A stretch of 64,000 bases of DNA from Enterobacteria phage vB_EcoM_IME540. Below the pieces are notes generated by a model. The model ran no database searches and had not been told where the DNA came from. It saw nothing but the letters and a program-made list of their open reading frames with translations. Positions 952 through 61,263 of the stretch are shown here, piece by piece. The DNA lies in sequence record MT150133.1, one strand, 5' to 3'. Position 1 is the first letter of the stretch. Each line of letters opens with the position of its first letter. Made by a program: the position numbers and the translations under genes.

Positions 952-1599
952 ATGGCAGATTTAAAATTAGGTTCTACAGCAGGAGGTTCGGTATTATGGC
1001 ACCAAGGTAATTTTCCCTTAACGCCTGTATCAAACGACCTTCTTTACAAAACATATAAAGTTTACACTGAATATAATAAACCACAAGCCGCTGATAACGA
1101 CTTTGTTTCAAAAGCAAACGGCGGCAATTATAAGAATAACGTGTATTTTGAAAAAGGTTTGACCTTTAATGATACCAATGGATATGGTATTAAATTAGGA
1201 GCAAGAACTGGCGGAGCCCCGTTCACAGCTTCTTTCCGTATTAAAGGTGCTTTTGGATATGAAACGGAAGATGGTACACCGTTCGTTATATTTGACCCAA
1301 GTACAGTAGTGGGTGCTAAACGCCTCACAGTAATGGGTGATTCATTATTCCGCCAAGTATATGACGAATCAGGTCGTGTATTCAGCCCAGGCAACACCCC
1401 TACTAAAGCCCAAGTAGGATTATCGTTAGTAGATAACGCAAAACAGGTCCAAATAAATAATACTAACATGCAAACAATGACCGGAGTACTTGCTGCTCCT
1501 AACTTTATTTCGCTGAATCCGGCCTCTGACGCAGGACACGTTCCTCGTTTTGACCAGATTGTTATTAAAGATTCTATTCAAGATTTTGGTTATTATTAA
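952..1599 (+). CDS. 36: long tail fiber distal subunit gp36
   Basis: N-terminus MADLK.GST.GGSV.WHQGNFPL and C-terminus HVPRFDQIVIKDS.QDFGYY match recalled T4 gp36; 215 aa; gene order 36-37. Confidence 0.9.
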   Translation: MADLKLGSTAGGSVLWHQGNFPLTPVSNDLLYKTYKVYTEYNKPQAADNDFVSKANGGNYKNNVYFEKGLTFNDTNGYGIKLGARTGGAPFTASFRIKGAFGYETEDGTPFVIFDPSTVVGAKRLTVMGDSLFRQVYDESGRVFSPGNTPTKAQVGLSLVDNAKQVQINNTNMQTMTGVLAAPNFISLNPASDAGHVPRFDQIVIKDSIQDFGYY

Positions 1600-1607
1600 G
1601 AGGCATT

Positions 1608-4600
1608 ATGGCTACTTTAAAGCAAATCCAATTTAAAAGAAGTAAAGTAGCCGGTGTACGTCCGACACCGGCCCAGTTGGCTGAAGGCGAACTGGCTATT
1701 AACTTAAAGGACCGATTACTTTTTACTAAAGACGATACCGGAGCGATTATCGACCTTGGCTTTGCTAAAGGTGGTAATATTGACGGCAATGTTATTCATA
1801 CCGGTAACTACAATCAAACCGGTGATTATACCCTAAATGGTACCTTTACCCAAACAGGTGATTTTAATTTAACCGGTATTGCTCGCGTAACTCGTGATAT
1901 TATTGCTGCAGGTCAGATAATGACTGAAGGCGGAGAACTTATTTCTAAGAGTGCTTCAACTTCTCATTTGAGATTCTTTGACGGTGCATCACGTGAACGT
2001 GGTATTATCTTTTCTCCTAATAATGCAGGGTTGACAACTCAGGTAGTTAATATCCGTGTTCAAGATTATGCCGCTGGTAGCGAAAGCACTTATGCATTTT
2101 CAGGCAATGGTCAATTTACTTCACCTGAAGTATCGGCATGGAAATCTATTTCATCCCCACAAATTCTGACCGATAAAGTTATTACAAATGGTAAGAAAGC
2201 TGGCGATTATGATATATCTTCATTAGCAAATAATAATTCTGCCACGGATAAAAACTATTTGCGCGTTGTACGTACCGACCCGGCGTCTGCAATGCTCCAT
2301 GAAATTTGTGAAAATAACGGTATCAGTTGGTATTCTGGTTCAACCCCTACTGATTATATGTTGTCTTTTGCTTATTCTGGCGGTTTTCAAGCTGGACATT
2401 CGATTGCAGTAGGTATGGAATCAGGGCCTATGACATATTCAGCCTTAGGTAAAGGTTCTATTGCTTTGGGTGATAATGATACCGGATTAAAATGGCATCA
2501 AGATGGATATTATTTCAGCGTTAATAACGGCACAAGAACTTTACTGTACGGCCCTGCAGAAACAACTAGCCTAAGAAAATTTGTGGCCGGTTATTCTGTA
2601 AACGGTACCGATTTAACCACTCCTCCGTCGGAAAACTATGCATTAGCCACTGTTGTTACTTACCATGATAATAACGCGTATGGTGATGGCCAAACTCTTT
2701 TAGGTTATTATCAAGGTGGTAATTATCACCACTATTTCCGTGGTAAGGGTACTACAAACGTTAACACTGCAGGTGGTCTGTTAGTTACTCCTGGTAATAT
2801 TGATGTTGTTGGTGGTTCGGTTAATATTGACGGCCGCAACAATGCTTCTACTCTGTTTTTCAGAGGAAATACTACAGGAAATAGTTCAGTTGATAACATG
2901 TCTATCAACGTTTGGGGTAACACCTTTAGTACAGTAGATGGCTTTCGTAAAAACGTGATGGAAATATCTGATGATATTAGTTGGATGCATTATATCCAGC
3001 GCAATAAAGATAATACCATTGAGGCTGTATTAAATGGGCAACAAACTATTAACGAAAATCTTGTTGTTAAAAAAGATATTTTGGTTGATAGAGCGGTCCA
3101 CACCGCTGGTGAAATTACTACAAATGCTGTTAACGGGCTCCGCATCTGGAACAACGATTACGGGGTCATTTTTAGACGTTCAGAAGGAAGTCTTCACATT
3201 ATTCCTACTGCATTTGGTGAAGGTAAAAATGGTGATATCGGACCACTTCGTCCATTTAGTTTGGCTTTAGATACCGGTAAGGTTGTTATTCCTGACTTGG
3301 ATTTGAGTTATGCTTCTTTTGCAGCAAACGGCTATATTAAATTCGGTGGACATGGTGCAGGTGCAGGCGGTTACGATATTCAATATGCACAAGCAGCTCC
3401 TGTTTTCCAAGAAATTGATGATGATGCTATAAACAAATATTATCCTATTGTTAAACAGAAGTTTTTAAACAGCAAAGCTGTTTGGTCTTTAGGTACTGAA
3501 ATTAATTCAGGTACATTTGTTTTACACCATATCAAAGAAGATGGTTCACAAGGCCATACATCAAGATTTAACGCTGATGGTACAGTTAACTTTCCGGATA
3601 ACGTTCTGGTCGATGGTGGTATTAACATGAAAGGCGTGATGACTTTTGACGCCGGACATTTAGGATCACAAGATTATTTTAAATTTAACCATTTGGGTGA
3701 TAGTAATAATGCTCGTGATAACATCATCCAGTTAGAAGATAGTCAAGGCGCTCATTTTTCCACTGAACGTACTTTAGCGACAGGTGCAATTAAAACTCGT
3801 TTCTTTGGCGAAACATCCACTGATGGTACATTATACCTAAATCAGATGAATAATAGCTCTGAACGATTCTCTATTAATAATTGGGGAAATTCAGAAGTTG
3901 GTCGCGCGGCAGTGATGGAAGTCAAAGATTCCAAAGGTTATCACTTCTATACTGAACGCAGGACAGATAACAGTTTGAATTTTGATGTTGGTGGCAATTT
4001 TACTGCGCATGGACCTTCCGGAATAACCATCAAAAACTCTGCTGGCGCTCGCCACATCTGGTTTAAAGATGATAGCGAATCGGAAAAGGCTGTTATCTGG
4101 GCTACAGATGAGGGTATTTTACATATACGAAATAATTATGGGGGTTCATTTAGTCATCACTTCCGGGGTGCAATGATTCTAGCGGAAGAGCGTGTTCCAT
4201 ATAATAGTGAATACGCTCTTATCCGTGGTAATATTTCCGGTGGTGCATGGGTAGACTGGCGAGATCGTCCGGCTGGATTGTTGGTAGACTGTCAGGACTC
4301 ACGAAATCAAGCATATAACATTTGGAAAGCTACTCATTGGGGCGAACAGCACATTGCGGCGATGGGTGTTCATGCCGGCGGTGGTAATCCTCATGTTGTA
4401 TTGCATGTGGGTGGGAGTGATTACGCATTTGGATTTAACGGTGATTTTACTGCTGGTGCTGCTGTATATTGTAACGACGTTTATATTCGTTCTGACCGTC
4501 GTCTGAAAATTAATGTTGAAGACTACGAAGAGAATGCGGTGGATAAGGTAAATAAACTCAAAGTTAAAACCTATGATAAAGTTAAATCTCTTTCTGACCG

Positions 4601-8682: not shown

Positions 8683-8720
8683 TTTGTATCTCCATTTCAC
8701 TCTATTGTTTTGATAGGTCT

Positions 8721-8749
8721 ATAGTATCATGTTTAAAGCAGAAGTAAAC
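8721..8749 (-). promoter_or_regulatory. early promoter (-35 GTTTAC, TGa-extended -10 TACTAT)
   Basis: Minus strand GTTTAC-TTCTGCTTTAAACATGA-TACTAT, then conserved leader AGACCTATCAA, 38 nt upstream of motA ATG. Confidence 0.6.
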
Positions 8750-11820: not shown

Positions 11821-11846
11821 AATCATCTCCATTAGTTGATAGGTCT

Positions 11847-11875
11847 ATAATATCATGATTAATGGAGATGTATAC
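11847..11875 (-). promoter_or_regulatory. early promoter-like element (-35 GTATAC, -10 TATTAT with TGa)
   Basis: Same module and leader (AGACCTATCAACTAATGGAG) as other early promoters; spacer ATCTCCATTA is complementary to leader TAATGGAGAT. Confidence 0.5.
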
Positions 11876-25186: not shown

Positions 25187-25224
25187 GATTTTTCTCATCT
25201 TACGGACGATTAGTTGATAGGTCT

Positions 25225-25253
25225 ATAGTATCATGTTGCTAGGTAAAGTAAAC
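25225..25253 (-). promoter_or_regulatory. early promoter (-35 GTTTAC, TGa-extended -10 TACTAT)
   Basis: Same module and leader AGACCTATCAACTAA as other early promoters. Confidence 0.6.
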
Positions 25254-29352: not shown

Positions 29353-30377
29353 ATTTTGGAATATTTCGAAAGTCTCATTTTAGCCATTAGACCTTGGGCT
29401 ATATTAGCTTTCATATATGCCAGTACATCATTTATATCAGCTTTATCTTTCATAATCATATCATTTATATCTTTAGAAGGCCATGGAGCCTTGTCCCAGA
29501 ATAGAACCCTTTCGCCGGCATCAACTAATCGTTGCATACGCTTAATTGTGTCAGGATGGCGGGGTTCATTGTCCATTACCCAGGCACGAGTTTCTTTACA
29601 TGGAACCATAGCCAAGTCCAACGACCCGCCAGTAATTGCTATTGCATTCGGTACGAATAATGAATCGATAGGACCTTCCATTACCCACACCAACTGACGT
29701 TCGTCGACAGTATCCATTCCATATATTTTTGTAGCTTGGTCATGAGCTTTTATTGTAATATATTTTTGTGGAGCATCTTTACGTAAGGCTCGACCCTGAA
29801 AACTTTCTATTTGTTTATCCTTATTGAAAATAGGAATAACCAAACGAGGCTCAGGCATTTCTTTAGAATAGGTCCCTGGATTGACAGAGTTCACCAATGC
29901 CGGCCATTCTTTAGTAAACCATAAGCGATTCCATTTGTTTTCAGGAATGCAACGTAGTGTTACATATTTGATAATAGGATGGTCCTTCGGCATTCTATCT
30001 AATCGTTCGCAGAAATTAAGCTTTTCGATAACGGGCATCTTAGCTTTAATTTTTTCAGATATCTCCACCTTAGGTGCAGCTTGTCTCCCGAACGATTGCT
30101 CTTTATGTTTCTCAAGAATATATTCTCGATATAAATCCGGCTCGTATTCGTATAGATACTTCTTAATTCCTGCCGAATAGTCGCAGTTAAAACAGTGCAG
30201 CATTACGGAGCCATCATTAGCCGGATAGGCCCAAAAACGAGCTTTGTTCTCATCTTTTTGGGAGTCGCCACATACACGACAACGACAGTTTAATTTAAAA
30301 TCACTACCAGTTACTTGTCTGAATTTAGGTTGGTAATTCAAGGCACGTACAGCAAATTCTCTATCGACATATGACAT
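29349..30377 (-). CDS. 61: DNA primase gp61
   Basis: 342 aa; matches recalled T4 gp61 (zinc ribbon CRVCGDS...NK.R.W, EPRLVIPI.N, FQGRALKKDAPQKYITI, LDNEPRHPDTIKRM.KLVDAGERV.FWDK, NIAQGLMAKMRLSKY.KI). Confidence 0.95.
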   Translation of the reverse strand: MSYVDREFAVRALNYQPKFRQVTGSDFKLNCRCRVCGDSQKDENKARFWAYPANDGSVMLHCFNCDYSAGIKKYLYEYEPDLYREYILEKHKEQSFGRQAAPKVEISEKIKAKMPVIEKLNFCERLDRMPKDHPIIKYVTLRCIPENKWNRLWFTKEWPALVNSVNPGTYSKEMPEPRLVIPIFNKDKQIESFQGRALRKDAPQKYITIKAHDQATKIYGMDTVDERQLVWVMEGPIDSLFVPNAIAITGGSLDLAMVPCKETRAWVMDNEPRHPDTIKRMQRLVDAGERVLFWDKAPWPSKDINDMIMKDKADINDVLAYMKANIAQGLMAKMRLSKYSKI

Positions 30378-30389
30378 TATTTTTCCTTG

Positions 30390-30415
30390 GGCTCTAAATT
30401 AATAGAGCCATTATA
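30390..30415 (-). promoter_or_regulatory. TGa-extended -10 TATAAT followed by 7-bp hairpin in primase leader
   Basis: TATAAT 32 nt upstream of gene 61 ATG, then GGCTCTA-TTAATT-TAGAGCC and SD AAGGAAAAA; no good -35. Confidence 0.4.
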
Positions 30416-30577
30416 TCATTCGTTTTCGGATTTTTCTTTACGCTTTTTAGATGGGATTTGTTCAGGCCCTTTGTTGACGACCGCGCCTGAGGTAGTTCCG
30501 GAGGCAATATTAGATGGGTTACCACCTGCATCGCCTGCGACCATATCTTCGTTCATAACTTCTTTAAAAGATTTCAT
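30416..30577 (-). CDS. hypothetical small hydrophilic protein (53 aa)
   Basis: Sub-threshold ORF MKSFKEVMNEDMVAGDAGGNPSNIASGTTSGAVVNKGPEQIPSKKRKEKSENE with SD AGGAG and a late promoter TATAAATA just upstream; a TTG-initiated plus-strand track ORF overlaps antisense. Confidence 0.4.
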   Translation of the reverse strand: MKSFKEVMNEDMVAGDAGGNPSNIASGTTSGAVVNKGPEQIPSKKRKEKSENE

Positions 30578-30590
30578 AGGCTCCTGGCCT

Positions 30591-30598
30591 TATTTATA
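30591..30598 (-). promoter_or_regulatory. late promoter core TATAAATA
   Basis: Exact TATAAATA on minus strand overlapping the stop of ORF 30594..30785. Confidence 0.4.
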
Positions 30599-30785
30599 TT
30601 ACGAAAATAGCTTTATCACCATTCGCATCAGTGACTTCATAGGTATCTTCATGATACAGTGGGATAATCCAAGTCACACCATCACCGGCAATAATATGGA
30701 TAGCTTCTTGGTCCTTTGATACGATTTCATACTCTTCGAATAATTCGAATACAGAAATCTTAGAGCCCGTACACATTGCACTCAT
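30594..30785 (-). CDS. hypothetical protein (63 aa)
   Basis: Co-directional ORF in gene string. Confidence 0.5.
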   Translation of the reverse strand: MSAMCTGSKISVFELFEEYEIVSKDQEAIHIIAGDGVTWIIPLYHEDTYEVTDANGDKAIFVI

Positions 30786-30981
30786 ATTGTTCCCTTCTTT
30801 TAATCAGTTTACGATGAGCCTTTTTAAGTTTACGAAGCTGGCGTTTAGTTGGTCGCGCAACATAAGCTTGAGTAGTTACTCGTCCAAAAACACCGTACTT
30901 AGGTGAAGGAGAATCGATAAAGACTTCCCACTGACAAGAGTAACTATACACTGCTTTAGAGAATTGGGTTAAGACAAACAT
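30760..30981 (-). CDS. small basic protein, PTKRQ-motif paralog family (copy A)
   Basis: 73 aa; C-terminal motif ARPTKRQLRKLKK shared with ORFs at 31769, 55872 and 62703. Confidence 0.55.
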   Translation of the reverse strand: MFVLTQFSKAVYSYSCQWEVFIDSPSPKYGVFGRVTTQAYVARPTKRQLRKLKKAHRKLIKRREQYECNVYGL

Positions 30982-30982
30982 A

Positions 30983-31423
30983 TTAACCTCGATTCATAAA
31001 AGCATTAAAAATTTGGTCATCAATTGAATAAACCGGGGCTTCCAGAATTTTCAACAGACTATTTTTGATATACTTGCTAGGGATATCCATGTTAATGCCG
31101 TCATTCAATTCATTGTCCGGGAGGATATCTTTAAATTCAAACCCATCAAACTCAACCCTATCAGGAATACCATCAGCGAAAAAATAAACCAATTGGTGCA
31201 TTGCATTGCACGAAAATAATTTAGACTTGACCGCAATAAGTTCTTGCCAATGGTTTAATTCTCTGTTAAGGAGTTTACGAGCAAATATAATTCTATCATC
31301 ACTATCAACAAGAAAATAACCTAGGTATTGGTGGTCGTCGCTCCAATACATCCTGTATGCTTGCGCATTTGGATTTTTACAACGAAGTTTTTTGATAACT
31401 AAATTTCTGTTAATCTTATTCAC
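30983..31423 (-). CDS. hypothetical protein (146 aa)
   Basis: ORF in 61-to-41 intergenic gene set. Confidence 0.65.
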   Translation of the reverse strand: MNKINRNLVIKKLRCKNPNAQAYRMYWSDDHQYLGYFLVDSDDRIIFARKLLNRELNHWQELIAVKSKLFSCNAMHQLVYFFADGIPDRVEFDGFEFKDILPDNELNDGINMDIPSKYIKNSLLKILEAPVYSIDDQIFNAFMNRG

Positions 31424-31709
31424 CTGTCACCTCTTTAACGATATTTTTGTTATCGAAATTGGCATCGCAATACAAAACATAGTTATATTGCATAACACCG
31501 CCTGAAGCTAATTGGTCTGACACTTCTTTAGCCATATCAGGGCGGTCGCGTTTAGTGATGTTCATTATATCAGCATAAATCTGATGTTCGACTGATTCTT
31601 GGTCTGCAGTCATAGACCATTCACAAAGGTCTTTATCCAATCCAGCCGTAACTGGAGCGGTGCCACATGATGCTACTGTAAGGATTGCTGCGATTAATAA
31701 CTTTTTCAT
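31416..31709 (-). CDS. sp: spackle periplasmic protein Sp (superinfection exclusion, lysozyme inhibitor)
   Basis: Track ORF trimmed to ATG MKKLLIAAILTVASC; matches recalled T4 Sp (DKDLCEWSMTADQ, IMNI.KRDRP.M, GGVMQYNYVLYCD.NF.NKNI); 97 aa. Confidence 0.85.
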   Translation of the reverse strand: MKKLLIAAILTVASCGTAPVTAGLDKDLCEWSMTADQESVEHQIYADIMNITKRDRPDMAKEVSDQLASGGVMQYNYVLYCDANFDNKNIVKEVTGE

Positions 31710-31737
31710 TTTTAACTCCTCGTTAGTTGATAGGTCT

Positions 31738-31767
31738 ATAGTATCACTACCATAGACCGTTGTAAAC
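31738..31767 (-). promoter_or_regulatory. early promoter (-35 GTTTAC, 18 nt, TGa-extended -10 TACTAT)
   Basis: Followed by leader AGACCTATCAACTAACGAGGAG; spacer GGTCTAT is complementary to leader ATAGACC. Confidence 0.6.
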
Positions 31768-31768
31768 A

Positions 31769-32008
31769 CTATTTCAACGAATCTTCCAAATAAATTTTAC
31801 GGAATTTACGTTTTGTCTGACGAATCTGACGCTTAGTAGGTTTCACAGGAAAATCGAAGAACTCTACGTATTCTTGTTCATAATCGTTGTGACCGACTGA
31901 AAGAACCAGTTCCCAGTTGCTTACGGTACGTTGGATAAACATGTTATGCTTACCAAAAGATTTATTCCAAAAAGAACTAGGAGTTGGTTTCATTAAGGTA
32001 ATATTCAT
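31769..32008 (-). CDS. small basic protein, PTKRQ-motif paralog family (copy B)
   Basis: 79 aa; motif VKPTKRQIRQTKRKFRK. Confidence 0.6.
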   Translation of the reverse strand: MNITLMKPTPSSFWNKSFGKHNMFIQRTVSNWELVLSVGHNDYEQEYVEFFDFPVKPTKRQIRQTKRKFRKIYLEDSLK

Positions 32009-32149
32009 TTATTCCTCACCTTCATGTTTATGAGCAATTTCTTCGAATTCGCTGTCACAGTCTAAACAGGTTGCGTTATCCCAAGCATCAAATACCGCTT
32101 GGTCTTCATAGACTGAACAACCACATACTACACATTCAAATTCTTCCAT
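32009..32149 (-). CDS. hypothetical zinc-ribbon micro-protein (46 aa)
   Basis: Sub-threshold ORF MEEFECVVCGCSVYEDQAVFDAWDNATCLDCDSEFEEIAHKHEGEE with two CxxC pairs; ATG directly after dmd stop, using SD GAGGAAAT at the dmd 3' end. Confidence 0.4.
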   Translation of the reverse strand: MEEFECVVCGCSVYEDQAVFDAWDNATCLDCDSEFEEIAHKHEGEE

Positions 32150-32344
32150 TTAGATTTCCTCAATGCGAGCATCATGTTCATAAACTTCTACGTCGTCGAC
32201 ATAGGCCTTGACTAGAATACTATTGACTTCAGCGAATTGGGTAGCCACCCACACAATATCGTTTTCACGCACTGAAGCTTCTTTGGTAGCGGTATCACCG
32301 TTGGCGAAATGGCCGACAAATTTTACTTTAATTGATTCAGACAT
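32150..32344 (-). CDS. dmd: Dmd antitoxin (inhibitor of host RnlA/LsoA RNase toxins)
   Basis: 64 aa; matches recalled T4 Dmd (VWVATQFAEVN..LVKA..DD..V versus T4 VQWATTQYAEVNKALVKAFIDDKKV); located between 61 and 41. Confidence 0.8.
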   Translation of the reverse strand: MSESIKVKFVGHFANGDTATKEASVRENDIVWVATQFAEVNSILVKAYVDDVEVYEHDARIEEI

Positions 32345-32662
32345 TTAGATTTCCTCGCAGAAGGCCCATTCAGCATGATAAACCGTAGCGCCTTTAGTAT
32401 CATTTAAACAAACCACATCCACCGGAGCAATTACACGATAAAGACGGGGTTCTCCTCCCACTGAACGAGCTGCACGTCCAGCATAAATCTTAGCCAAACC
32501 GATATCTTCAGTAAAGAACACACGATTTAGGTTTTTCTTACGACCGGTTTCAGACAGAACTCCTGTTTCCTCAGGAGGACAAAGCATATTACCGATATTA
32601 GCGACACTACAACTTCCATGGTAATACACTTTATATTCTGCTTTACAGTCGATGGTTTTCAT
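32345..32662 (-). CDS. hypothetical protein (105 aa)
   Basis: Track ORF begins at TTG; ATG MKTIDCK after SD GGAGAA; contains YYHGS and RLYRV motifs of unknown significance. Confidence 0.6.
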   Translation of the reverse strand: MKTIDCKAEYKVYYHGSCSVANIGNMLCPPEETGVLSETGRKKNLNRVFFTEDIGLAKIYAGRAARSVGGEPRLYRVIAPVDVVCLNDTKGATVYHAEWAFCEEI

Positions 32663-32686
32663 TTTGTTCTCCAAGTTGATAGGTCT

Positions 32687-32715
32687 ATAGTATCACGCCT
32701 ACAGGAGATGTAAAC
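32687..32715 (-). promoter_or_regulatory. early promoter (-35 GTTTAC, TGa-extended -10 TACTAT)
   Basis: Immediately downstream of the gene 41 terminator; leader AGACCTATCAACTTGGAG. Confidence 0.6.
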
Positions 32716-32719
32716 CCTT

Positions 32720-32745
32720 AAAAACAAAAAAGGAGCCGAAGCTCC
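32720..32745 (-). terminator. intrinsic terminator (GGAGC-TTCG-GCTCC plus TTTTTTGTTTTT)
   Basis: Hairpin begins at the gene 41 stop codon and is followed by a long T-run. Confidence 0.65.
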
Positions 32746-34185
32746 TTAAAATTTGATAGATGCTGCTAAATCGTCCAAATCACTTCTATTAACACGCGTC
32801 TGTCGATTGACCTCGGCCTGGCGATTCATCTCACCTGTAGCCTCACGAACAGTGTTCACTGGGCCTGGGTTGGAATCATCTTCAACTTCGTACCAACGTT
32901 GATTTCCTTTCTTAACGCCAATCTTAAATTTGTTGTAGTAGCTCTTATCGCCATAACGAGATTTAAGCTGCTTAACCATCTGCATACCCATCTGAGCGAA
33001 CTCTTCTGTCTCGACCACACCCAACATGAAGTCTGCAGTATGTGCAATACCAAAGGATTCAGCAATATCGGCCATATCGATTTCGGCTGCAACGTTCGCA
33101 CCACGAGTAGTCTGGGCTGCAGTCCACAACAGTAATTTCTTCTCTACTGCAAGTCCACGTAGTTCTTCAGCAACCATCTTAATCAATCCGTAACTGTTTT
33201 CAGAGAAAACTTTCGTACGAGACGATGCACAGATAGCCAAGTAGTCAACGATAACGACCTGTGGGACAAAGTTTTGTTTGAGCTTGTATTCGTTTAATAA
33301 TGCACGGAATGTATCGGCATTAGCACCGCCAGTAGGATACTGTTTAATCTTTAAACGACCCAAGGTAGCAGTTGAACGCCATTTATCCATCTTAGCTTTA
33401 TATTCAGGCCAAGAGACGTGACCATCGTCAATATCGTCTAGTGATACATCCAGAAGGTTGGCATCGATACGCTTAGCACATACTTCCTCTGCCATCTCCA
33501 TGGAGATATAAAGAACATCGTAACCCGATTGAAGATAATCAGCAGCCAATGAACACAGACCCAGAGACTTACCTACGTTTGTTCCTGCCAACAATACGTT
33601 TTCAGTACCAAACTCAGCACCACCCTTGGTAATCTTATTCAGAATATTAAGACGGAATGGAACCTTACGTGCTTTATCAGAATAACTTTTGAATCGTTCT
33701 TCATAGTCATCCATCCAGTCATGACCTAATTCAGAATCGAAACAAATCGATAATGCATCACGCATGATATCTGGAATAGCACCAATACCTGGAAGTTTTC
33801 TATTTTGTTGCTCAACTGGAAGGTCGGCATTAGTTTGGATTTCAATGATTTTTGAAGTTGCATTATACATCGCTGCTTTCTGAACGTATTTCTCCGTCTC
33901 TTTAACCAACCATTCTTGGTCTTCAGGCCCGGAGTTCAGCGAACTTAAAAGCTCTTTAGCGCCTTGATGTTCAACTTCTGAAAGCGTACTGTTATCTAAT
34001 GCAATGCTCAATGCGTTCTTAGAAGGCACTGCATTATATTCATTGACGTGTTTTTTAATTTCTTTGAAAAGGGTCTTTGCAGGACCCTGGTCAAAATAAG
34101 AATCATTCATATAAGGCCAGACCTTAGTGAAATAATCACTATTGCCTAGCAGTTGAGCCAAAATAGTTTCTACCACTTCCACCAC
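32746..34185 (-). CDS. 41: replicative DNA helicase gp41 (DnaB-like)
   Basis: 479 aa; matches recalled T4 gp41 over long stretches (WLVKETEKYVQ, NATSKIIEIQTNA, KARKVPF.L.ILNKITKGGAE.GT, NVGKSLGLCSLAADYLQ, YISMEMAEEVCAKRIDAN). Confidence 0.97.
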   Translation of the reverse strand: MVEVVETILAQLLGNSDYFTKVWPYMNDSYFDQGPAKTLFKEIKKHVNEYNAVPSKNALSIALDNSTLSEVEHQGAKELLSSLNSGPEDQEWLVKETEKYVQKAAMYNATSKIIEIQTNADLPVEQQNRKLPGIGAIPDIMRDALSICFDSELGHDWMDDYEERFKSYSDKARKVPFRLNILNKITKGGAEFGTENVLLAGTNVGKSLGLCSLAADYLQSGYDVLYISMEMAEEVCAKRIDANLLDVSLDDIDDGHVSWPEYKAKMDKWRSTATLGRLKIKQYPTGGANADTFRALLNEYKLKQNFVPQVVIVDYLAICASSRTKVFSENSYGLIKMVAEELRGLAVEKKLLLWTAAQTTRGANVAAEIDMADIAESFGIAHTADFMLGVVETEEFAQMGMQMVKQLKSRYGDKSYYNKFKIGVKKGNQRWYEVEDDSNPGPVNTVREATGEMNRQAEVNRQTRVNRSDLDDLAASIKF

Positions 34186-34499
34186 CTCTTAGATTTAATT
34201 TTATCCAGTTCTTCTTGTATTTGCATTGTAACACATTTTTCTACATGAAGCGCTAGCTCTTCTTTTCGGTCTTCGGAAGGTGTTCCGAAATCAACCGACA
34301 CTTTTCCATCTTTCTCAATAACAATATTCATCACATAAACGATGTGAGCAGTGCCATCGGGTAAAGTAAGCATAATTTCCTGCTTAACCGATCCCATTGA
34401 CTTACGGATTATATCTAATGATTTCTCATAATAACGAGGGTCACTAGGACCCTCTTCGGTATCTTTAACGAAATTATCTAAATCAGATAAATCAGTCAT
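34170..34499 (-). CDS. 40: hypothetical protein in the gene 40 position
   Basis: 109 aa between uvsX and 41, the T4 uvsX-40-41 arrangement; sequence identity to T4 gp40 not verified. Confidence 0.55.
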   Translation of the reverse strand: MTDLSDLDNFVKDTEEGPSDPRYYEKSLDIIRKSMGSVKQEIMLTLPDGTAHIVYVMNIVIEKDGKVSVDFGTPSEDRKEELALHVEKCVTMQIQEELDKIKSKRWWKW

Positions 34500-35664
34500 C
34501 TAAATCCATCTCTTCCAAATCGTTTTCGATATCAGCGGCGCTTTGGGCATTACCACCTAATTTAACAGCAACGTTCTTAGAGACACGAGAGTTAATAAGG
34601 TCGTTCACTGCATCGTCAACTTCTTTAATAGAATTAATTGCACCGAGCTTATACTTATTCTCGATTGCTTCACGGAACGGGGCATGTTTAAACAGCGGTC
34701 CCCAGAACTCGACACAATCGGTAGCTTTAGCACGCCATGCTTTTTCTTCTTGAACCATTTCGCCTGTGGTTTCGTCAAGGAATGCACGATTATACCAGCC
34801 AGCTTTAGGTTTCACGACAAAGCCAATATCAGTAGCCATTTCAAGCAATCCACTGAATGGGTCGATACCACCTTCGAAGTTAACGGTGATAGGGAACGTT
34901 GATTTCTCTTTAACCGTACGAGATTTCTCAGCCTTCAGTGTGAAGTCATAACCAGTGAGCTCGGTACCATCTTTAACCTGACGTTTAGAGATAAAGAACA
35001 CGGTAGAAGCAGAGTACAGAATACCAGTACCACCACCCATAATCTCTTTAGGATACATTCCACCAATTTCCATAGCCGTGTGGTTGATTGCTACACAAGG
35101 GATATCTTTGATAGTCAGATAAGGTGTTACGATACGGAACAGAGATTTCAGTGACTTAGCACGGGTCATATCACCTACAACTTTCTCGTTCAAAGCATCT
35201 TCGGTTTCTTTCTTAGAAGCAGTGTTACCAATGGAGTCGATAAAGATAATAACCTTTTCGCCACGAGTAATTTCTTCTAACTGGTTGGTCATATCAACTT
35301 TAAGCTGTTCGACTGACTGGATTGGTGTATGAACCACACGTTCCAAATCAACACCCATCGAACGGAAATAAGATTCTGAAGCACCAAACTCAGAGTCATA
35401 GAACAAACAAATTGCGTCTGGATATTTCTTCATATATGCCGCAACCATGGTAAGTCCAAACAACGTTTTAAAGTGTTTAGATGGAGCAGCAAAGATTGTC
35501 AAACCTGATTGTAAGCCTGCATTCAACGCACCGCCTAATGCAATATTCAGCATAGGGATACGAGTAGGAACTTCGTCACGACCATTAAACAATTTAGATT
35601 TGGTCAGGTCGGCGGTCATTTTAGAAGTAGAAGCTTTAATCAAACGGGATTTTAAATCAGACAT
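34492..35664 (-). CDS. uvsX: UvsX recombinase (RecA-like)
   Basis: 390 aa; near-identical N-terminus to recalled T4 UvsX (MSDLKSRLIKASTSK), Walker A region, NEKVV.DMTRAK..KSLFRIVTPY. Confidence 0.97.
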   Translation of the reverse strand: MSDLKSRLIKASTSKMTADLTKSKLFNGRDEVPTRIPMLNIALGGALNAGLQSGLTIFAAPSKHFKTLFGLTMVAAYMKKYPDAICLFYDSEFGASESYFRSMGVDLERVVHTPIQSVEQLKVDMTNQLEEITRGEKVIIFIDSIGNTASKKETEDALNEKVVGDMTRAKSLKSLFRIVTPYLTIKDIPCVAINHTAMEIGGMYPKEIMGGGTGILYSASTVFFISKRQVKDGTELTGYDFTLKAEKSRTVKEKSTFPITVNFEGGIDPFSGLLEMATDIGFVVKPKAGWYNRAFLDETTGEMVQEEKAWRAKATDCVEFWGPLFKHAPFREAIENKYKLGAINSIKEVDDAVNDLINSRVSKNVAVKLGGNAQSAADIENDLEEMDLDD

Positions 35665-61208: not shown

Positions 61209-61234
61209 GATAACCTCCAGTAGTTGATATGTCT

Positions 61235-61263
61235 ATAGTATCATTTCTACTGGAGATGTAAAC
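61235..61263 (-). promoter_or_regulatory. early promoter (-35 GTTTAC, TGa-extended -10 TACTAT)
   Basis: Spacer CTCCAGTAG is complementary to leader CTACTGGAG, which contains the SD. Confidence 0.6.

Follow-up and report, generated by a model that had tools for sequence, protein, structure and literature searches.

A predicted ADP-ribosyltransferase, a Dmd homologue and a predicted zinc-ribbon micro-protein in adjoining accessory genes of a Dhakavirus

Do the small genes that adjoin a phage antitoxin gene form a system with it, or do they only share its location? We address this question in Enterobacteria phage vB_EcoM_IME540 (sequence record MT150133.1), from which a stretch of 64,000 nucleotides (the window) was analysed. 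Here dmd lies between a gene for a 105-aa protein and an open reading frame (ORF) for a 46-aa protein, and the three abut one another on the minus strand within 32662-32009. Dmd is a proven antitoxin mimic in phage T4, and ADP-ribosyltransferases (ARTs), the class to which we assign the 105-aa protein below, are used by phages in host takeover and anti-defence, as with T4 Alt, ModA and ModB and with AcrIF11. A sequence-only reading of the window had named the Dmd homologue, had described the 105-aa protein by its YYHGS and RLYRV motifs and the 46-aa ORF by two CxxC pairs, and had proposed both neighbours, as uncharacterised genes at a place where anti-defence genes might cluster, as candidates for further host interference. 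The three ORFs lie where that reading put them and carry these motifs, and the identity of Dmd is borne out.

On balance we favour a reading in which the ART gene, dmd and the zinc-ribbon gene are independent immediate-early accessory cassettes of a hyperplastic region, with a slight lean towards a non-protein acceptor for the ART. A terminator and an early promoter would be followed, between the replication genes 41 and 61, by the ART gene, dmd, the zinc-ribbon gene and a 61.4-like gene, all four under one promoter and chained through stop/start junctions. The ART would be made at the very start of infection, bind NAD+ and pass ADP-ribose on to an acceptor that many Gram-negative hosts, or else the phages themselves, have in common, and Dmd would, by homology, neutralise the host RNase toxins RnlA and LsoA as in T4. 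The dmd gene itself would be a mobile cassette, set between the other two by recombination at a 15-bp junction repeat and later swapped for a distant allele in some Dhakaviruses. The pairing of the ART with dmd was already noted computationally in 2022, identical proteins are present in GenBank, and the locus is a typical T-even accessory region; new here are the evidence against a toxin-antitoxin reading of the pair, the proposal that dmd moves by way of a repeat, and the unexpected degree, close to that of a core gene, to which the ART is conserved.

The 3.5 kb around the locus are 97% identical to the Dhakavirus genomes FB, IME08, WG01, QL01 and Bp7, and by sequence the source phage is a Dhakavirus, that is, a T-even phage of the JS98/IME08 type. 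The minus-strand gene order is uvsX, 40, 41, the 105-aa gene, dmd, the 46-aa gene, a 61.4-like gene, sp, ORF146, 61.1 and the primase gene 61, and the WG01 RefSeq record annotates all three ORFs of interest (ORF38, ORF37 and ORF36).

Fold, conservation and distribution of the 105-aa protein

The 105-aa gene (32345..32662, minus strand) starts at an ATG with GGAG 8 nt upstream; the TTG start at 32674 chosen by the ORF lister would give 109 aa, and homologues begin at MKTI. Its product, known in IME08 as orf35 and annotated there as similar to RB69 orf040c, matches PHROG 2110 (1.5e-60), a family without an assigned function, and carries YYHGS at residues 13-17 and RLYRV at residues 73-77. An AlphaFold2 model built from a 43-sequence alignment (pLDDT 86.9) adopts the split beta-sheet ART fold, and its two best fold matches are KptA and Arr, with Arr as the top Foldseek match. 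In the hidden Markov model (HMM) alignment to Arr-ms (structure 2HW2), H15-G-S pairs with H19-G-T, E38-x-G40-R41 with E40-x-G42-R43, and F49-F-T51 with Y49-I-T51; hhalign joins the family to Arr-ms with 80.6% probability. The NAD+-binding motif residues H15, G16, F49 and T51 do not vary, and position 17 holds Ser or Thr. Across the broadened family the other invariant residues are P30, E38, G40, R41, K43, N44, L45, A57, Y60, A61, G69, G70 and G91, and the family has invariant motifs of its own, GRKKNL and AKIYAGRA, the first forming a basic loop that adjoins the NAD site. From these alignments and the model we predict that the 105-aa protein is an NAD+-dependent ADP-ribosyltransferase of Arr/KptA-like type, consisting of a stand-alone domain. 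A sequence search of the PDB with the profile of the T4-like family gave no match, only the broadened profile reached Arr (E 0.23), and PADLOC gave no match for the ART, Dmd or the 46-aa protein.

One rival reading of these matches is that the protein is a true rifamycin-inactivating Arr, protecting host RNA polymerase and phage transcription. Arr is its sole Pfam or NCBIfam family match as well as its top Foldseek match, and Iyer et al. (2022; Viruses 14:1977, PMC9503650) offered such a role for genuine Arr genes in actinophages. We find it hardly credible here: the NCBIfam Arr equivalog model scores 12.9 against a cutoff of 130, and Arr (PF12120; PDB 2HW2, 9IAF) has 143 aa against 105 aa, the phage protein lacking about 40 C-terminal Arr residues and aligning only with Arr residues 14-80. 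In addition, GRKKNL and AKIYAGRA are family-specific and differ from Arr, the Tyr of Arr is Phe in the phage protein, and the phage family occurs in polyvalent proteins and in phages of Gram-negative hosts, enteric and aquatic. Orthology with Arr was ruled out by the equivalog score and the length. Orthology with Tpt1 was ruled out because the phage protein lacks the N-terminal winged-helix RNA-binding lobe that bears the catalytic Arg-His-Arg in KptA/Tpt1 (PDB 9LD3, 8TG3). AcrIF11 (PDB 6KYF) has no significant sequence similarity to the phage ART, differs in phyletic distribution and brings no CRISPR link, and neither NCBIfam nor PADLOC gave an AcrIF11 match for the 105-aa protein.

That the 105-aa protein was uncharacterised, as the sequence-only reading had it, is right as far as experiments go, but the family had been noted as an ART by Iyer et al. 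(2022), and some GenBank records name it ADP-ribosyl transferase. The "p0068" family of that study is most likely the 105-aa protein; the equation comes from matching context only, namely an ART immediately upstream of dmd in T-even phages. Iyer et al. placed p0068 in the H-Y-[EDQ] clade, whereas the fold and motifs found here look closer to Arr and KptA. Since the window-equivalent region of WG01 is annotated as encoding both ModA and ModB, the 105-aa protein is an additional ART of the phage.

We identified the ART by tblastn in 609 phage records, mostly at 60-90% identity, from phages of Escherichia (216), Klebsiella (116), Acinetobacter (68) and Aeromonas (62), as well as Enterobacter, Cronobacter, Vibrio and others. 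In conservation the protein equals or exceeds the replicative helicase gp41: its identity is higher than that of gp41 in an RB69-type phage (90% vs 68%), in Yersinia-type loci (83% vs 68%) and in Acinetobacter phage 133 (75% vs 55%), and on the sequences compared it is under very strong purifying selection. It is thus carried by at least 609 sequenced phages, among them many candidates for phage therapy directed at E. coli, Klebsiella, Acinetobacter and Aeromonas.

Beyond these small genes, the family comprises 247 representatives at 50% clustering among 1.84 billion proteins, and many of them form part of larger proteins (500-3,900 aa, the longest 3,924 aa), in which they are fused to DUF7178, GNAT, Toprim, ART-PolyVal or NUDIX domains. 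Such polyvalent-protein architectures have been read as effectors injected at the start of infection (Iyer et al. 2017). On jumbo-phage contigs the ART domain is joined to a DnaG-like Toprim domain in a 618-aa protein (1447-3303 of loci L063 and L064 in the set of loci described below), and one protein, P0165, combines GNAT, Toprim and ART domains; in another, P0155, the ART domain is joined with ART-PolyVal and NUDIX domains. An 850-aa protein (L062, 2455-5007) holds three ART-like domains, one of them weakly KptA/AcrIF11-like.

Two functional links suggested by gene neighbourhood were set aside. Gene 41 adjoins the ART gene and jumbo phages carry Toprim-ART fusions, both of which hint at a link to primase and helicase; Toprim is common in polyvalent proteins, however, and Klebsiella- and Aeromonas-type loci have other upstream neighbours. 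In the Klebsiella-type loci that we checked, RNA ligase 2 lies about 1.5-2 kb downstream of the ART gene (for example L054, 4822-5865; RNA_ligase 5.8e-20, with T4_Rnl2_C), a placement suggestive of RNA repair but not conserved. In that same locus, on a 180.5-kb phage contig, the ART frame is split into overlapping ORFs of 33 aa and 95 aa (3001-3319), which is likely a frameshifted pseudogene or a sequencing error. Two records, of Salmonella phage SHP1 and of Escherichia phage UPEC01 (KY979109, MW233709), apparently mislabel the ART as "clamp loader subunit DNA polymerase".

Evidence for the exchange of dmd and for the independence of its neighbours

The dmd gene (32150..32344, minus strand) encodes a 64-aa allele that matches PF17587 over nearly the full profile (57.9 bits against a cutoff of 27, E 1.3e-15; residues 3-60 on profile positions 2-59 of 60) and PHROG 2102 (1.8e-30). 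It is 48% identical to T4 Dmd, which it matches over its full length, and occupies the equivalent syntenic slot after gene 41, between that gene and 61.4/sp. By this homology Dmd is most likely an inhibitor of the host toxins RnlA and LsoA. The two phages differ in what surrounds it: the T4 order is 41-promoter-dmd-61.4-sp-61.2 and that of the window 41-ART-dmd-zinc ribbon-61.4-sp, and the 10-kb region around T4 dmd holds neither the ART gene nor the 46-aa gene. T4 Dmd has 60 aa and comes first in its unit, whereas the Dmd studied here has 64 aa, comes second and ends in an I-E-E-I tail that duplicates the 3' end of the ART gene. Records with Dmd number 796; most belong to the T4 genus, at about 48% identity, and phages of Escherichia, Shigella, Yersinia and Salmonella supply nearly all of them. 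Word-indexed searches were shallow for the two smaller proteins, giving 4 clusters for Dmd and 4 for the 46-aa protein.

Tandem Dmd-like genes occur in two loci (L010, 3319-3873; L014, 3289-3824), where a Dmd of 68-70 aa is followed by a protein of 110-113 aa with a Dmd-like N-terminal half (Pfam E 0.0017) and a C-terminal extension. In Salmonella phage ABTNLsp5 (MW149274), dmd is apparently mislabelled "translational repressor protein".

Both ends of dmd are marked by the same 15-mer, GAGGAAATCTAAATG. Copy 1 (32342..32356, minus strand) spans the last ART codons (E-E-I-stop), the Shine-Dalgarno sequence (SD) and the dmd ATG, and copy 2 (32147..32161, minus strand) spans the last dmd codons (again E-E-I-stop), an SD and the ATG of the 46-aa gene. 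These are the only two copies in the 64 kb, even with up to 2 mismatches allowed, and they lie exactly at the two ends of dmd. The claim of the sequence-only reading that the 46-aa ORF starts directly after the dmd stop and draws its SD from the dmd 3' end agrees with what we find: the TAA abuts the ATG, and GAGGA lies within the last dmd codons (GAGGAAATCTAA followed directly by ATG). The tail of Dhakavirus Dmd, I-E-E-I, is a copy of the one that ends the ART, C-E-E-I; T4 Dmd has no such tail. In three loci without dmd (L016, L019 and L020) the junction from the ART gene to the zinc-ribbon gene reads GAGGAAATCTAA followed directly by ATGGAAGAA, which is exactly the product expected from excision between the two repeats.

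We further find that dmd varies where its neighbours do not. Within Dhakavirus the ARTs are 98-100% identical and gp41 about 99%, while Dmd comes in two alleles, of 64 aa and 67 aa, that are 53% identical. Between the window and phage JS98 the identity is 100% for the ART, against 53% for Dmd; the flanking genes have a proportion of synonymous differences (pS) of 0.17-0.36 and a proportion of nonsynonymous differences (pN) of at most 0.02, against a saturated pS of 0.67 and a pN of 0.27 for dmd. The comparison indicates that the allele was replaced by recombination rather than diverging in place. The locus L015 joins a different gene, of 188 aa, at the equivalent junction. A repeat made of stop, SD and start would let anti-defence cassettes be exchanged within an operon in a simple way.

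The co-orientation of the genes extends to a probable common transcript. Directly after the stop of gene 41 lies a stem-loop resembling an intrinsic terminator (32730..32747, minus strand; AAGGAGCTTCGGCTCCTT and a T-run, with a 7-bp stem of which 4 pairs are GC), followed by a T4-type early promoter (32687..32714, minus strand) with TTTACA, a 16-nt spacer, TG and TACTAT, upstream of the four genes. Stem-loops joined to early promoters (PeSLs) are known from hyperplastic regions of T4-type phages, with the promoter consensus TTTACW-N17-TAYWAT (PMC4122927); the order here, stem-loop at 32747-32730 and then promoter at 32714-32687, agrees with that description, so that the stem-loop is one half of a PeSL-type composite motif. 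The unit is bounded downstream by a second copy of this T4-type early promoter (31738..31766, minus strand), since this precedes sp and starts the sp unit. We infer that the 105-aa gene, dmd and the 46-aa gene are immediate-early genes of one four-gene unit. The locus shares with the PeSL cassettes of other T4-type phages (Arbiol 2010; Comeau 2014) the stem-loop with TTTACA-N16-TACTAT upstream, the hyperplastic setting and the gene-by-gene replacement; it differs in its exchange point, which for dmd is the 15-bp stop/SD/start repeat inside the operon and not a PeSL.

Such an arrangement is also what a phage-borne type II toxin-antitoxin pair would show, with the ART as a toxin possibly acting on RNA and Dmd serving as its antitoxin in addition to blocking RnlA and LsoA. 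Iyer et al. (2022; PMC9503650) predicted an ART toxin-Dmd antitoxin pair in this context for Escherichia, Shigella and Salmonella phages, and speculated on RNA substrates. In keeping with it, the genes are adjacent and co-oriented behind one upstream early promoter and share a stop/SD/start junction, Dmd acts as an antitoxin mimic in T4, and the adjacency recurs in RB69-type and other Escherichia/Shigella T-even lineages.

We compared this prediction with 69 loci, consisting of 68 ART-encoding IMG/VR loci with 3-kb flanks and the IME08 locus (L001), whose ORFs were searched iteratively with the window proteins and whose neighbouring genes were clustered. Directly downstream of the ART gene lies dmd in 11 of the 69 (L001-L010 and L014) and the 46-aa gene without dmd in 4 (L011, L016, L019 and L020); the remaining loci have unrelated gene clusters there, often joined through ATGA overlaps. 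Host genera outside the top ten of the Dmd tally account for about 300 of the 609 records with the ART, and Dmd is present without the ART in at least 380 records of Escherichia phages, as it is in the dmd region of T4; roughly half of the 609 ART records and roughly half of the 796 Dmd records belong to hosts that the other set does not share. Identical ARTs stand beside recombination-exchanged Dmd alleles that are 53% identical, a pattern that speaks against co-evolution of the two proteins, unrelated genes take the place of dmd at the equivalent junction in other phages, and the ART domain also occurs without Dmd in the injected polyvalent effectors. The comparison does not support an obligate pair, and we regard the toxin-antitoxin reading as quite unlikely. 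As dmd is bounded by repeats, has exchanged alleles and is represented by other genes at equivalent junctions, we argue from these sequence comparisons that the adjacency probably reflects cassette traffic at portable junctions and not an obligate two-component system. A lineage-specific interaction between the ART and Dmd may nevertheless exist and is compatible with the comparative data.

The third gene (32009..32149, minus strand) could be dismissed as a non-coding spacer that merely carries translational signals between dmd and 61.4; it is very short, and the records of IME08, JS98, JS10, CIP9 and VR5 leave it unannotated. We consider this very improbable. The cysteines of its two pairs, C6xxC9 and C28xxC31, are all invariant in 12 orthologues from several genera, among which the length of the acidic tail varies; dN/dS (the ratio of nonsynonymous to synonymous substitution rates) is 0.05-0.38 with synonymous sites near saturation, and the protein has its own family, PHROG 13952 (9e-32), with 69 phage records from Escherichia, Shigella, Salmonella, Enterobacter, Kosakonia, Yersinia and Pectobacterium phages. 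AlphaFold2 predicts residues 1-30 with confidence (pLDDT about 88) as four short strands forming two zinc knuckles, followed by an acidic helix, and the net charge from sequence is about -14. A tandem paralogue of 47 aa (MKHFTCDDCG...CQDC...GEEE) lies directly downstream of the 46-aa homologue in two phages without dmd (L016, 3447-3590; L020, 3423-3566), which also argues against a spacer. The ORF is, on this evidence, a real coding gene for an acidic, predicted zinc-ribbon micro-protein, although it stays below threshold in curated zinc-ribbon families (Zn_ribbon_8, 10.4 vs 34.4; DUF7129, 11.5 vs 30; ECs_2282_CxxC, 16.5 vs 37). In the 11 fetched loci that have it, the gene is always downstream of the ART gene, directly or with only dmd between. 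It could be the ancestral downstream neighbour of the ART, and its constant position may simply come from shared ancestry.

Acceptor and role of the predicted ADP-ribosyltransferase

What would the ART modify? The two nearest folds differ in this respect from the known phage enzymes, in that Arr modifies a hydroxyl on a small molecule and KptA a phosphate on RNA. Among the catalytic-acid positions only Arr-ms D84 can be compared through the HMM and hhalign alignments, and there the family has no invariant acidic residue, the aligned N87/D88 being variable. E103 is kept in at least 90% of the T4-like members and lost in divergent ones, and E38 is invariant, yet located in the loop between strands 1 and 2. 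Because KptA and Arr use phosphate and hydroxyl acceptors, because no invariant acid stands at the D84 position and because the GRKKNL loop is basic, we infer that the acceptor is somewhat more likely to be of non-protein nature (the end of a nucleic acid, a nucleotide or a small molecule) than to be a side chain of a protein.

Modification of a protein, as by ModA and ModB or by AcrIF11, is nearly as likely. In its more definite form, in which the ART modifies a conserved host protein such as RNA polymerase, a translation factor or a defence protein, we treat this reading as a tentative possibility. All characterised T4 ARTs, and AcrIF11, act on proteins, the gene has an immediate-early placement, and Iyer et al. 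(2022; PMC9503650) placed the p0068-like family in the macromolecule-modifying H-Y-[EDQ] clade. Set against this, the best fold matches use non-protein acceptors, the acid at the D84 position is not invariant and the second motif residue is Phe, and the phage already encodes ModA and ModB.

Several observations weigh against our favoured reading of independent cassettes with an active, probably non-protein-directed ART. The 105-aa protein itself is sub-threshold for Pfam Arr-ms (15.1 bits against a cutoff of 25, E 0.026), a level that divergent family members exceed in Pfam alone, with 25.5-31.5 bits, and the NCBIfam equivalog score quoted above is far below its cutoff. The canonical aromatic residue of the second motif, Tyr or His, is Phe, and the protein may be an inactive NAD-binding protein or have a purely structural role. 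The co-occurrence counts cover only the 69 loci and tallies by organism name, and the tight coupling of the ART with dmd in Dhaka-, Mosig- and related viruses fits a lineage-specific functional link. Our literature search found no experimental work on this ART, nor, in any phage, biochemical or genetic data on either the ART or the 46-aa protein.

A bolder version would have it that the ART is an immediate-early enzyme, close to a core function in most T4-like phages beyond the T4 genus, which ADP-ribosylates a non-protein acceptor by chemistry of the Arr/KptA type as a new strategy of counter-defence or RNA protection, with the zinc-ribbon micro-protein as a possible partner in some lineages. 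We hold this unlikely. Were it true, the acceptor might for example be a phosphate at the end of RNA or DNA, a nucleotide, or a small molecule that acts as an immune signal or a toxin, and the significance of the family would rise sharply if it modified a non-protein substrate. Whatever its nature, the target, once identified, would make this a fourth class of ADP-ribosylation in T-even phages, next to those of Alt, ModA and ModB.

The proposal that both neighbours of dmd are host-interference candidates is reasonable in view of the predicted ART and of the competitor- and defence-related genes found in the same slot. Adjacency, the argument originally given for it, carries little weight because the three genes have been independently gained, lost and swapped.

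Other features of the region between genes 41 and 61

The last gene of the four-gene unit (31769..32008, minus strand) encodes a 79-aa gp61.4-like protein (DUF7279; Pfam PF23945, E 2e-19), and starts at an ATG that adjoins the stop codon of the 46-aa gene (GAGGAATAA followed directly by ATG). A second DUF7279 paralogue (30760-30981, minus strand; Pfam E 2e-19) lies further downstream, so that the two flank the pair formed by sp and ORF146. In L007 the first DUF7279 copy is swapped for a distant allele (51% identity) among neighbours that are at least 98% identical.

The 22-nt core of the early promoter, GTGATACTATAGACCTATCAAC, occurs in 6 copies in the window and in none of the shuffled sequences; all are on the minus strand, at 8709-8730, 11835-11856, 25213-25234, 31726-31747, 32675-32696 and 61223-61244. 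The core pattern, A or G followed by TGATACTATAGACCTATCAAC (22 nt, up to 2 mismatches), is conserved well past the -10 hexamer. An Rfam scan of 30000-35000 gave no match, and no tRNAs were found in the window.

The spackle gene sp (31416..31709, minus strand; Pfam T4_Spackle, E 2.5e-42) is followed by ORF146 (30983..31423, minus strand), which stands at the position of AdfA (T4 61.2, an anti-DarT factor). Only the last 14 residues of ORF146 (SIDDQIFNAFMNRG) match RB69-type and T4 AdfA, at 93-100% identity, and the body of the protein is unrelated. By sequence, ORF146 is a case in which the 3' junction has been kept and the body replaced, a pattern like that of dmd.

In the RB69-type locus L009 (3576-4254), genes for a DUF5481 lipoprotein-like protein and a superinfection-immunity protein (Imm_superinfect) lie between dmd and sp, replacing the CxxC and 61.4-like genes. 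The slot between genes 41 and 61 also holds competitor- or defence-related genes in the form of spackle here and of Imm and AdfA in relatives, which fits a view of the 41-61 region as an island of competitor- and defence-related cassettes.

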